From contig OZ024745.1 of assembly GCA_964016885.1 (NCBI GenBank), positions 22,444,001 to 22,508,000 of the forward strand: a stretch of DNA of 64,000 nucleotides, in the 5' to 3' direction. The position numbers and the translations under genes were made by a program. The notes under the pieces are model-generated. The model ran no database searches, had not been told where the DNA came from, and saw nothing but the letters and a program-made list of their open reading frames with translations. Every line of letters starts with the position of its first letter. Position 1 is the first letter of the stretch. Positions 39,621-60,702 of this stretch are shown piece after piece. The stretch comes from Eledone cirrhosa (taxonomy: Eukaryota).

Positions 39621-40048
39621 TAAGTATGTACACGTACATACATATATGTATACAGACGTACAGTAGTATGTATATATATATATATATATATACATGCATA
39701 CACACATATATATATGTACGTATGGATTCACCGAACATTTATTATAATGCTCGGTGTGTTTGTAAACAAACATCCCGATTTAAGCCGTACAGTGTCTAGC
39801 AACCATCGTTGCTCATTTGTTCAACACTGACAAAGGAACGCTGTACTAGTTTCAAGCTTATTAGCTATCGTCAGCAACGTATACCTTCTTGCCAGATGGT
39901 TTAACGTCTGAAAGTATATACTTTCCTTATGCATATTAACGGCTGAGCAGCCTAATTTGCATATCGAGTGAGTTAATCGGCCGGGGTACCGAAAACGATA
40001 AACGGAAAAAATGAAACGAAATTTCATTTCTCAGTCTTAGTACGGCTG
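39621..40048 (-). mobile_element. Retrozyme-like unit (~440 nt), permutation 1, hammerhead at 39839-39879
   Basis: CGUUG-CUGACGA-U-AGCU(AAUA)AGCU-U-GAAA-CUAG-UA-CAGCG on minus. Confidence 0.8.
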
Positions 40049-40063
40049 TATATATATATATAT

Positions 40064-40378
40064 ATACTACTGTACATCTGTATAAATATATGTATGTACG
40101 TATACATACTTATATTAAAGTAACAGCCGTACTAAGAGTGAGAAATGAAATTTCGTTTCATTTTTTCCGTTTATCGTTTTCGATACCCTGGCCGATTAAC
40201 TCACTCGATATGCAAATTAAGCTGCTCAGCCGTTAATATGCATAAGAAAAGTATATACTTTCAGACGTTCAACCATCTGGCAGGAAGGTATACGTTGCTG
40301 ACGATAGCTAATGAGCTTGAAACTAGTACAGCGTTCCTTTGTCAGTGTTGAACAAATGAGCAACGATGGTTGTTAGAT
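40064..40378 (+). mobile_element. Same unit, inverted, permutation 2, hammerhead at 40293-40333
   Basis: Reverse complement of the neighbour, but reads through that copy's end-to-start junction. Confidence 0.8.
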
Positions 40379-40450
40379 GGTTATATATATATATATATAT
40401 ATATATATATATATATATATATATATATATATATATATATATATATATAT

Positions 40451-41107
40451 AAAAGACGTAAAATAAGAAAATTCTTAAAAAAAGTTTTTTAAAAAAATTT
40501 TAACTTACTTAAATTTTCACTCCAACTAATTAGTTTCTGCAATGGGATAAAGACAGTTACGTAATCCAACTGTCGAGAATTCATTGCGTCATCAAGGAGT
40601 CTATTCTTAGCTAAGTCTCCAGGCAATGCGCGGACACTGGGGACTCATATAAAAATAATAATAATTCGGTAGATGGAACAGCTAGCGGGGGCTAAATTCC
40701 ATGCACCGAAATCCTCGCTGCCTCTGGTCAAATGGCCGATTCTAAAGAATCAATCACGTGACACAGAGGCTAGTCAGTAGGAATGGGATGGTAAGATGAC
40801 AGACGCCTACTAACACCCCCCAAAAAAAATTTAGAAGTGGTTTAGGCAGGTTTGCTCGACAAATCAGTGATTTGGAGATAAATATAGATAATTTAATATA
40901 TCTACTAACATAAGCGCACAGATGTATGCTAATGCCAGCAAATACACAGGTTATGTCATAGTACCTAGGTGGTTCAATGCAGGAGGATGCAGAACAATAA
41001 TATAAAAGACGTAAAATAAGAAAATTCTTAAAAAAGGTTTTTAAAAAAAATTTTAACTTACTTACTTAAATTTTCACTCCAACTAATTAGTTTCTGCAAT
41101 GGGATAT
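40451..41107 (-). mobile_element. Retrozyme-like element, ~553-bp unit plus ~100-bp redundancy; hammerhead 40519-40600
   Basis: 40451-40549 repeated at 41004-41106; homologous to 22104-22705. Confidence 0.78.
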
Positions 41108-56914: not shown

Positions 56915-57518
56915 TGTTGAAGCTGATATAATAAGCAATGTGAGTCGATATTCAATCACTTGTAGGCGACTCGCCATATCTTTCAGTAGGGAGTGAATGT
57001 TTATGTAAAAAGAAAAGGGTATTTAAAACCAGACTGTCGAGTTATGGAGAACAGCAAAACTTCTGGATGATAGCCACAACACGACAGAAGAAAGTTAATA
57101 GAGATAGATGAGTTGTTTCTTCTTCTTCAGCCCCCGGAAAGTCTGTTATTGGAAATAGGCATACCCTGAGCTGCACCGTCGTAGCCGATCTTGAGCCATT
57201 CATGGCCAATCTTTTTCAATTTTCTTGAGGTCGTCTCGACCTCTGGTTTTCTGGTGGCCCTGGTTTCCTGTGTGACCACTTGGCGGCTAGCAGAGTTAAT
57301 AGATGTCTTAATGGAACAAAAATAAATCAGTTCTATGAAGTGGGGTTGCAATGAACTGCAATGTCTCCTCTACAAATCCAGAGATTACAGAGAGCCTGTG
57401 AGAAGAACTCCAGCTGCGTATGATCGTATAAACATTCACTCCCTGCTGAAATATATAGAGAGTCGGGTACAAGTGATTGAATATCGACTTGCATCGCTTA
57501 CTATATCAGTTTCAACTT
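56915..57518. mobile_element. MITE-like element with ~90-bp diverged TIRs; contains an RTE 3' fragment (57115-57275, minus)
   Basis: AGTCGATATTCAATCACTTGTA..GGGAGTGAATGTTTAT mirrored at 57427-57515; DDLKK...MAQDR and (GAA)n tail inside. Confidence 0.6.
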
Positions 57519-58874
57519 GGGTCGATACACGCAGGACTTGAACTCATTAATTAGAATGGTGAAACTATGGATAAATATCCCAGGGTAGCGAGGGAACATT
57601 AATGGCGACCAGAACAATAACAAGAAGAATTCGAGCAACAGGGGATAATGAACAATAATTGCAGTGAGGTCAATGACACAGCAACAACAAAGAAGAGGAA
57701 GATGATGAGGATTAGGAGGAGGAGGAGGAGGAGGATGAGAAGGAGGAGGAGAGGAAGGGGCAGGAGAAGGGGATTCAAAGAAGAAAAAGAAAAGTGAGGA
57801 GAACTACACGAGGAAAAGCAACAACAACAAAAAAAGAAAAACAAATGAATAAGAAAAAGAAGAAACATCTGATGACATTAATAAAACTACGGAAAGGATG
57901 AAGAGAAAGGAGAAGGGAAAAGAAGAGGAAGAGGGGGAGGGGTGGAAAAGAGGGAAGTGGAAGTGGAGGAGAAGAAAACAGGAACTACAGGGAAAGAGAA
58001 AAGGGTACACAGAGAGACAAGTTAGGTTGAGGGAGAGACACAGAGAGAGATAGGGGGGGGGCAGAGATAGAGACAGAGACAGGGAGATGGGGAGAGGAGA
58101 AGTGTGGGTAGAAAAAAGATTTGAGGGGTGGGGTTAGAAGAAGAATTGATATCCAAAATTTTCTGTAGAAATACGACAGTATGCTGAAAAGTTCATAGGC
58201 TGACTCTGAAACATTGATGCTACAGCTGTGAAATCTTGCATGCATTAATTTCAACTCTTCTTCTTAATAACTGCATTGTTTCTTTGCAGGGACTATGTTG
58301 AAAGATAAACCTCATTTGGTCATTCCATGAGAGTCACTTGGTCAGCCAATGAACTTTTCAGTCGACCGCGTACAAAACTGAAGAGAAATGACGAAAGTAA
58401 AAATTTGAACATGTAGTATATGTTTAGGCCGATGTTGGGGTTGAGATTCCGTAGTTATGTCCTTCATTTAATGGAACGGTATGGTGGCATTTGGGGGATA
58501 TTCACCTGTTATTTCTAGCTAGTTGAAGGATCATCTAGATGTTTCTTGTGTGTCAGGTGAATATATATATGAGTATATAGATAGTCAGATATATGAACAA
58601 TATACACACACGCACATATACACGCACAGAAACACGCACACACACACGCACACAGACAAACACACACAGGCACACAGACACACACGCAGATACACATTCA
58701 CAATCTGAACGGAACGCGATCAAGTCAGTCACCTACATATCCAATCTCCGTCGTTTCTTACTGTTCTTCCCACAGGCAATAGCACACACATACACACACA
58801 TACACACACACACATACACACAAATACACACACACACATACACACACACACACCTATATATATATATATATATT

Positions 58875-59410
58875 TTTTGAGCTGACTTTTGGGATGCTCC
58901 CATACAGCTCTGAGTTTTTCATCCTCAGTGTATACTGATTAATGTTCAGAGCCATCCTCAGCATTCTCGTGTAGCACCCATCCACCATCTGAGTGAGTCT
59001 CTTGGTCAGTGTCCAAGTCTCAGACCCATACAGCAGCACAGACTCCACTACAGCAATGAAGAGGCGGATTTTCAGGTCTCTACGAAGGTCCGACTTCCAC
59101 ACCGATCTCAAGCTGTGACACGCCGCCCAGGCCTTGCTCTTCCTCTCAACCACATCATCTTCCGTATTCCCAGAGGAGACTGAGGTTGGCTGGACATGCT
59201 CACCGACATCCAGAGTTGACATTGCACTCAGTGCTCCTTTGGGAGCCCCTACATGGACACACTAGAAGAGGAAGACCAAGGTTAACATATGTTGATGCCC
59301 TAAGGACAGACACTGGTCTGTTGGAGATGCAGGATATGGCAGCGATAATGAGGGACAGAGACCGCTGGAGAGAACTCGTCCATGGATCTCGGGAATTTTA
59401 CCCGCCTTAG
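58875..59410 (+). mobile_element. RTE-group LINE 3' fragment with inverted 5' portion
   Basis: 58875-59171 (-) ESVLLYGSETWTLT...RMLR; 59172-59410 (+) RLAGH...RGRPRLTYVD...DRDRW. Confidence 0.9.
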
Positions 59411-60339
59411 ATAGATATATATATATGAAAAATAGCGTGCTGTGTTGTTGCAAATGTGATATACAAATTAAAATGAAGAATTAGAAATAGAAGCTAAGAC
59501 TATCCATCATCAGTTGTCTACTAGCCATCATAGGTATTTCTTCGCATTAAAGACCAGATACCTCAGGCTAGCGCGAACAATAACTAAAATAAGTTATTGG
59601 GATAAAAAGAATTGGGTGGAGAAAGAGAGACTGGTAAACAAACATGGATCCCGGGAATTTTACCCGCCCTATATATATATATATATATATATATATATAT
59701 ATATATATATATATATATATATATATATATATAGGGTTGGAAACAAAGTTCCCGCACAACTTTGTAAATAAATGTATGTGGGAACTTTCCAGCCCAATAC
59801 ATATAAATATATAGGTGTGTGTGGGTATAGAGAGTAGTGATGAATTATTTAGCATTGGATATCCAGAGTTGGAGAACACTCAATCTGTAGAAAGTGTTTG
59901 TATCATTTATTACACTAACAATCGCATCATTTAAGTACAATTGTTCCGCTAGCCGTTTGTTTCAGATCTCTTACTAATAGCAGACTCCAGTTCGTCAGCC
60001 AATATTGTTATCATATAGTGTTTATAAGGATATAAATAGATAGATATTTTATAACTGTGAAACAATACCAATAATTTCAGGACCAGGAGTTTCGTGCTTA
60101 AAAACAGCTTGATAAGTCCCCTTAAGAATGAAACTCCTGTCCGTAGAGTTTTTAATAATATTTTACTCACACACGTACGTATATATGTATGATTATATAG
60201 GAAAATGTAGACCCCGAGGGCAGAGCTCAAGCCGTTTCGACGGCTAATTCTGGACTCATGTATGATTATATTTCTGGACTATGTATGATTATATATATAT
60301 ATATATATATATATATATATATATATATATATATATATG

Positions 60340-60702
60340 GAAAAGAATGCAACGAAATTTCATTTCTCACTCTTAGTACGGCTGGTACTTAAATGTAAGT
60401 ATGTATACGTACATACATATATGTATACAGACGTACAGTAGTATGTATATATATACATACATGCACACATATATATATATATGTACGTATGGGTTTACCG
60501 AACATTTATTATAATGCTCGGTTTGTTTGTAAACAAACAGCCCGAATTACGCCGTACAGTGTCTAGCAACCATCGTTGCTCATTTGTTCAACGCTGACAC
60601 AGGAACGATGTACTAGTTTCAAGCTTATTAGCTATCGTCAGCATCGTATACCTTCCTGTCAGATGGTTGAACGTCTGAAAGTATATACTTTCCTTATGCA
60701 TA
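60340..60702 (-). mobile_element. Retrozyme-like unit, permutation 3, hammerhead at 60606-60646
   Basis: On plus it starts with the sequence that ends 39621-40048; stem I CGAUG/CAUCG. Confidence 0.8.

Follow-up and report, generated by a model that had tools for sequence, protein, structure and literature searches.

The 64,000-nucleotide stretch analysed here (Eledone cirrhosa assembly GCA_964016885.1, contig OZ024745.1, positions 22,444,001 to 22,508,000; hereafter the window) contains three copies of a ~439-nt repeat that carries a predicted hammerhead ribozyme and encodes no protein. Our analysis suggests, with a probability that we put at roughly three in four, that this retrozyme is inserted in trans by the reverse transcriptase (RT)-endonuclease of a Penelope-like element (PLE), probably from a ligated RNA circle. 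The original prediction had set a retrozyme without an open reading frame (ORF) against a Penelope element as alternatives. The retrozyme itself stands: the hammerhead core is present in all three copies, the longest ATG-initiated frame is 68 aa in the sense and 57 aa in the antisense direction, and the RT and GIY-YIG ORF of an autonomous PLE was not found within the element. The opposition to Penelope does not; the data indicate a retrozyme moved by PLE machinery.

Alignment, linker and position mapping confirm the three copies (Table 1). Unit positions are counted on the hammerhead strand from the first base 3' of the predicted cleavage site. Because an 11-nt linker present in both copy 2 and copy 3 connects the end of copy 1 to its start, the unit is ~439 nt long; it is TA-rich, with long hairpins. 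The linker also bears out the earlier proposal that the inverted copy 2 crosses the unit junction. Copy 3 had been described as opening with the motif that closes copy 1. This overlap is real, but copy 3 begins ~12 nt earlier and the motif has one mismatch. Copies 1 and 2 are about 96% identical (96.5% identity; divergence given as 4.3%), while copy 3, which represents a second stem I subfamily, shares 91.8% identity with copy 1. Copies 1 and 2 are most likely the two arms of a single head-to-head insertion and not separate events, as suggested by 35 such pairs in the 80 loci described below.

Insertion ends and the pairing of arms

Our search covered the 3.0-Gb genome assembly. A 34-nt core of the unit has 9,420 exact matches and its reversed control has none, so the family is not a product of chance. 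A search of sequencing runs listed no RNA run with the repeat, and contigs from four runs of unspecified kind carry no information on expression; two runs from other organisms, with 12 and 9 contigs, are not counted as presence there. The locus sample was drawn from the first 100 listed places on one contig (C1), which correspond to 86 loci; removal of 6 overlapping or duplicate loci left 80 loci with 127 arms. Mapping the breakpoints of these arms modifies the claim that the copies are different circular permutations. Read-through of the junction is genuine, but the permutation is not free: 51 of the 3' ends fall at site A (unit 218-230), 54 at site B (269-287) and 22 elsewhere, so that 105 of 127 lie at one of two sites for which a uniform distribution predicts 7%. 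The 5' ends, in contrast, are near uniform (p 0.058). With the 3' ends fixed and the 5' ends scattered, what looks like permutation amounts to 5' truncation of copies begun at two set positions. The two sites are 59 nt apart, and the tail between them contains a predicted hairpin. A (TA)n tract adjoins 94 of the 127 3' ends, and exact junction patterns across the genome number 4,919 for site B with TA and 3,668 for site A with TA, with 0 for the controls. The arms exceed one unit in 58 cases and two units in 9, with a maximum of 4.6 units; these lengths, and the crossing of the cleavage site by the arms, support the earlier proposal of reverse transcription from circular or multimeric RNA. Sites A and B are putative PLE RT start sites. 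In three loci (L004, L080 and L094), a short stretch of the B end gives way to sequence from a different unit position, which would be expected if the cDNA had started at B and then switched.

Paired arms follow a simple rule. Head-to-head pairs outnumber tail-to-tail pairs by 35 to 1 in the 80 loci, and 21 of the 22 pairs with both ends classed combine one A end with one B end (p 5e-6). The same combination was found in 15 of 16 pairs of 30 BLAST-picked loci (8 further pairs are unclassed), and in 17 of 17 head-to-head neighbours within 3 kb when exact ends (76 at A, 100 at B) were collected over the initial 69.8 Mb of C1, a set that overlaps in part with the 80-locus insertions. A further 59 new loci yielded 14 A+B, 2 A+A and 11 unclassed pairs; in both A+A exceptions one arm ends in an internal TA tract, which is an alignment artefact. 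A sister retrozyme family, with a 466-469 nt unit, 9,595 pattern matches and arrays of up to 30.7 units, has homologous A and B ends (loci L159-L178 and L299-L305, for example; the cleavage triplet varies between GUU and GUC). Its pairs are A+B in 14 of 14 cases, with 2 more unclassed. The window family and the sister family are colinear round the whole unit (score 340 vs 135 +/- 13).

A coding PLE provides a comparison. Family B, one copy of which lies in the window, is young: its 150 scored matches are 98-100% identical, and its frames reach 1,294 aa. A Pfam search gave no RT or GIY-YIG match for the PLE ORFs, and their look-alikes in the Atlas are RT/GIY-YIG proteins at 0.96-0.97. Among the family B loci, of which 12 were fetched for showing opposite-strand neighbours, elements end at two sites 60 nt apart. 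All 12 pairs with both ends classed are A+B, and 2 more pairs have one other end. The window copy has a short inverted 5' piece and ends at its own site A. Since the retrozyme has the same two-site, one-per-arm anatomy as a coding PLE, it is likely copied by a PLE-type enzyme. Published work describes PLE insertions with an inverted 5'-truncated copy, a tail often at one end only and (TA)n targeting (PMC8557442). In vitro, a PLE protein, predicted to be a dimer, nicks and extends both target strands and initiates at two internal positions of the RNA, which bound the tail, start-site use showing no strand difference (PMC11167929).

Some features of the ends and pairs count against this interpretation. 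The site A class can take in arms that end in the internal TA tract. Of the 35 head-to-head pairs, 13 have one end at neither site, among them that of copy 2, which passes through both site A (40115) and site B (40174) before its own 3' end. In its favour, the two arms of a pair have rare variants in common at 26 of 456 sites, compared with 12 of 2,001 in random pairs, and their stem I subtype matches in 20 of 21 pairs (3 mutated pairs excluded). However, paired arms still differ by a median of 4.0%, compared with 5.7% to other copies, and the timing of subfamilies could therefore play a part; the shared variants may reflect that timing and not a single RNA molecule.

Spread at the DNA level, by slippage, fold-back repair or a DNA rolling circle without RNA, would suit a TA-rich unit with long hairpins, and later DNA duplication is seen in some arrays. 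It would nevertheless leave unexplained why 3' ends fall at two fixed sites when 5' ends vary freely, why a coding RT element follows the same one-A-one-B rule and why the ribozyme covaries in a strand-specific way, and we consider it extremely improbable.

The predicted ribozyme and the probable RNA template

The predicted hammerhead layout in all three copies comprises an intact core, a 5-bp stem I, a 4-bp stem II over a U.U and a palindromic CUAG stem III. Stem I covaries as originally noted, with CGUUG/CAGCG in copies 1 and 2 and CGAUG/CAUCG in copy 3. Among 166 hammerheads in the fetched loci, 81 have the copy 1 form, 27 the copy 3 form and 9 a third paired form; the remainder are scattered stem I variants, some unpaired. 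Over 20 distinct sequences from the window and sister families, 93.5% of the stem cells are paired and 6 of 13 stem pairs show two-sided changes, which represent a few subfamily events. Rfam searches at the gathering threshold and at E<=10 matched no hammerhead family, and the assignment as a hammerhead therefore depends on its motif and covariation. The folding z-scores (-0.96, -2.58 and -1.61), the absence of stem III from the predicted structures, the U.U at the base of stem II and the one-pair stem III are likewise unfavourable to our proposal, as is a report that 8 of 9 retrozyme dimers failed to cleave (10.64898/2026.07.22.740005).

Arms that reach the predicted cleavage site cross it in 33 of 34 cases in 60 loci (some belong to the same insertion) and in 35 of 35 cases in the 59 new loci; the loci were chosen by their 3' end and not by the ribozyme. 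This crossing excludes cut linear monomers as the template. A circle could serve, since internal starting needs no RNA 3' end. Read-through alone is no proof of a circle, because the coding family B also crosses its own hammerhead.

Further insight came from a young haplotype of the sister family, with 69 matches at 7 loci and arms of 0.4-17.6 units. Its 17.6-unit arm is 100.00% identical throughout, one insertion consists of 6.9 + 12.9 units, and no longer run of this haplotype than 17.6 units is present in the assembly. An uncut template would need to pass 17 ribozymes intact and to come from a longer array, which the assembly does not contain; rolling-circle copying is therefore favoured. 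Arms of this youngest haplotype average ~6 units, whereas those of the older window family average less than 1 (median ~300 nt), and fresh arrays may collapse with age. At one locus (L305, on contig C744), a 10.8-unit arm changes haplotype in its 5'-most 1.2 units, by a template jump or recombination.

The same PLE machinery and start sites could instead act on a long, uncut read-through transcript of a tandem array, with a weak or incidental hammerhead. Published in vitro data favour such a template: uncut RNA was the main substrate of the PLE protein, and ribozyme mutants were inserted normally (PMC11167929). The crossing of its own hammerhead by family B and the weakness of stems II and III point the same way. 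So do the mosaic units of the 30.7-unit array and the alternating units in L161 and L061, which fit either DNA-level duplication or a mixed multimer template. The 17.6-unit arm could itself be the source of four young arrays, and no locus-private fixed variants were seen at the 7 loci of the young sister subfamily. All of these weigh against a circle. On the other hand, the transcripts would need to keep up to 17 ribozyme sites uncut, and their source would have to be a perfectly homogeneous array of at least 18 units, absent from the assembly. Compensatory changes also preserve the hammerhead stems in two families whose sequences differ throughout the unit, and related retrozymes yield abundant circles (PMC7229834). 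We regard an uncut multimer as possible but the less probable template, and a ligated RNA circle as somewhat more probable than not.

Insertion from a circle would proceed as follows. Tandem copies would be transcribed, and their hammerheads would cut the RNA, likely as dimers through the palindromic stem III, after which a host ligase would close monomer circles. The PLE protein, likely a dimer, would nick both strands of a (TA)n tract, and the two strands would prime cDNA synthesis at different internal sites of the RNA, A for one and B for the other. Each cDNA would extend for a variable length, possibly for many laps. Joining of the two far ends would produce an inverted pair in which a single side carries the tail, and failure of one side would leave a single arm. 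A tentative extension, to which we give somewhat less than even odds, is that the insertions directly record rolling-circle copying, in which a dimeric PLE protein reverse-transcribes a circle made by the ribozyme and its two subunits start at A and B, one per strand. The retrozymes would then be a self-standing circle lineage that keeps both starts without resembling a resident pseudo-long terminal repeat (pLTR), and long arrays would later collapse to ~1 unit.

The search for a driver element and the surrounding sequence

Our survey of PLEs was partial and covered about a dozen families. The non-TA part of the unit matched none of the 15 end regions of coding PLEs that were compared (z at most 1.1; the sister family reached 3.1 and the positive control 29-44), nor did the unit resemble the 3' untranslated region (UTR) of a Hydra-type PLE, and no pLTR homologue of the unit in an autonomous family was found in this material. 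The lack of a matching partner argues against insertion in trans by a PLE enzyme. A search of PLE loci with a two-sequence profile returned solely separate retrozyme copies and TA-rich noise.

The survey also bears on whether the copies are merely 5'-truncated pLTR pieces of an unsampled coding PLE. Their insertion anatomy is identical to that of a coding PLE, and the partial survey leaves room for such an element. But the unit closes on itself as ORF-less tandem arrays of up to 4.6 units, and the two retrozyme families are colinear round the whole unit. PLE protein matches occur in 54 of the 170 locus reads (some overlapping), and no arm-ORF junction recurs among the 170; the four TA-free contacts between an arm and a PLE (L014, L021, L025 and L058) all differ in family and breakpoint. 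The original prediction had held that it would fail if the copies derived solely from pLTRs of a coding Penelope. No sampled coding PLE has the unit as its pLTR, and this explanation is largely refuted and very unlikely.

The Hydra-type family accounts for 4 of the 6 TA-free junctions in the first loci and for none in the 59 new loci, and is consequently a weak lead. Two of its junctions look as if an A arm of the Hydra-type element had paired with a B arm of the retrozyme; nested insertion and resection explain the junctions equally well. The junction loci are L014, L015, L068 and L265, and the family has a ~80-nt tail and no canonical hammerhead in the 3' UTRs listed. Several leads to a partner were rejected. 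L058 is not a chimera that names the partner, since its arm sits within a Hydra-type ORF and was carried along: in L058:1-2500 the arm is inserted antisense in that ORF and was recopied as cargo in an inverted arm. L014 does not represent the native 3' UTR of the Hydra-type family, as the other copies listed have an unrelated ~850-nt UTR. The ORFs of the two PLEs next to copies 1 and 2 (38579-39547 and 42899-44128) belong to elements with different hammerheads and ends, and a TA tract separates family A from copy 1.

Table 1. Positions in the window of the retrozyme copies, their predicted ribozymes and the adjoining elements.
Feature	Position	Strand	Details
Copy 1, retrozyme arm	39618..40048	-	Unit ~235 -> 439/1 -> 226; 3' end abuts (TA)n at site A
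Copy 2, inverted arm head-to-head with copy 1	40049..40377	+	Unit ~160 to 49
Copy 3, single arm	60339..60703	-	Unit 347 to ~280-285; 3' end abuts (TA)n at site B
Major part of the 59-nt A-B tail, inside copy 1	39998..40048	-	Site B at 39998
(TA)n target tract left of copy 1	39546..39622
(TA)n tract right of copy 2	40382..40451
(TA)n tract at 3' end of copy 3	60291..60338
Copy 1, predicted type I hammerhead	39839..39879	-	Stem I 39879-39875/39843-39839; core CUGACGA 39874-39868; stem II with U.U base, GAAA, stem III; cut predicted after 39844
Copy 2, predicted hammerhead	40293..40333	+	Cut predicted after 40328
Copy 3, predicted hammerhead	60606..60646	-	Cut predicted after 60611
Family A coding PLE, 5'-truncated, not retrozyme	38040..39547	-	Own different hammerhead near 38305; ORF 38579-39547
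Family B coding PLE, 5'-truncated, not retrozyme	42803..44625	+	RT end and GIY-YIG ORF 42899-44128; own different hammerhead at 44415

Other coding PLEs have left 3' ends in the window as short inverted pairs with a ~40-nt tail on one arm (16560-16922, 17593-17822 and 47830-48540). More inverted elements lie at 18265-18928, 19190-19474 and 53561-53972. Other hammerhead-like cores are present at 13166(-), 17048, 17961, 38311(-), 44409 and 47611, and many further families occur in the fetched loci. Within copy 1, directly after site B, ATGCAAAT (39957-39964, minus strand) lies inside a block that is kept between both retrozyme families and broken in the youngest sister-family haplotype; it may resemble a promoter octamer of the small nuclear RNA type. 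A ~650-nt element with ~100-nt direct repeats at both ends occurs at 22105-22707 and at 40447-41106, the latter adjoining copy 2; it has 41 matches in 17 sequence records, some overlapping. Copy 3 is flanked by fragments of a LINE-like RT C-terminus at 58854-59261(-) and 60740-60990(+), presumably RTE, and a tRNA-like match (37 bits) lies at 36593-36663.

Relation to known systems

How animal retrozymes enter the genome has so far been a hypothesis (PMC7229834, PMC7761336), backed by co-distribution and pLTR phylogeny (10.64898/2026.07.22.740005). The insertion ends described here tie a retrozyme to the two-start-site mechanism of PLEs. The one-A-one-B rule, found in two retrozyme families and a coding PLE, provides a testable constraint on how PLEs handle both target strands, a point left open by the in vitro study (PMC11167929), and the 439-nt RNA, on which both start sites are mapped, would be a compact substrate for testing whether priming can begin inside a circle. 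The literature already covers retrozymes, the PLEs proposed to drive them, tails and inverted copies; a search of it with most subscription papers left outside found no report of tail-type retrozyme ends or of a counted one-site-per-arm rule.

The element resembles the metazoan non-LTR retrozymes (PMC7229834, PMC7761336) in its short ORF-less tandem unit, its type I hammerhead and its range from monomers to multimers. Its unit is slightly longer (439 nt, compared with 170-400 nt). Its weak palindromic stem III and the U.U at the base of stem II have each been described separately in two axolotl motifs (PMC7229834, PMC7761336). Circles and cleavage were demonstrated for metazoan retrozymes (PMC7229834), whereas the ribozyme here is predicted from sequence. 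Those papers name PLEs as likely drivers and report no conserved motif that points to them (PMC7229834, PMC7761336); the present family has ends with a PLE signature. The plant LTR retrozyme, in which a type III hammerhead lies in LTRs around a unique central region, is not matched by this type I, purely tandem unit. A more recent study also has PLE machinery moving retrozymes, and the co-occurrence with PLEs is alike (10.64898/2026.07.22.740005). Its basis is co-distribution and pLTR homology in frogs; ours is integration anatomy, with no pLTR homologue found and two retrozyme families that look diverged as whole units.

Among PLEs, the endonuclease-positive clades share with the retrozyme 5' truncation, an inverted truncated copy, a one-ended tail, (TA)n targeting and two internal starts (PMC8557442, PMC11167929). 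Unlike them, the retrozyme has no RT or GIY-YIG ORF, and its tail is 59 nt long compared with 30-40 (PMC8557442, PMC11167929). PLEs with an N-terminal endonuclease are reported to lack canonical hammerheads (PMC8557442). Non-autonomous Chlamys PLEs such as MRC1 likewise form multicopy head-to-tail insertions, but generally resemble an autonomous family at their 3' end (PMC8557442), and no such partner was found here. Finally, the PLE protein showed no strand difference in its choice of start site in vitro (PMC11167929), whereas the genomic pairs described here almost always use one site per arm.

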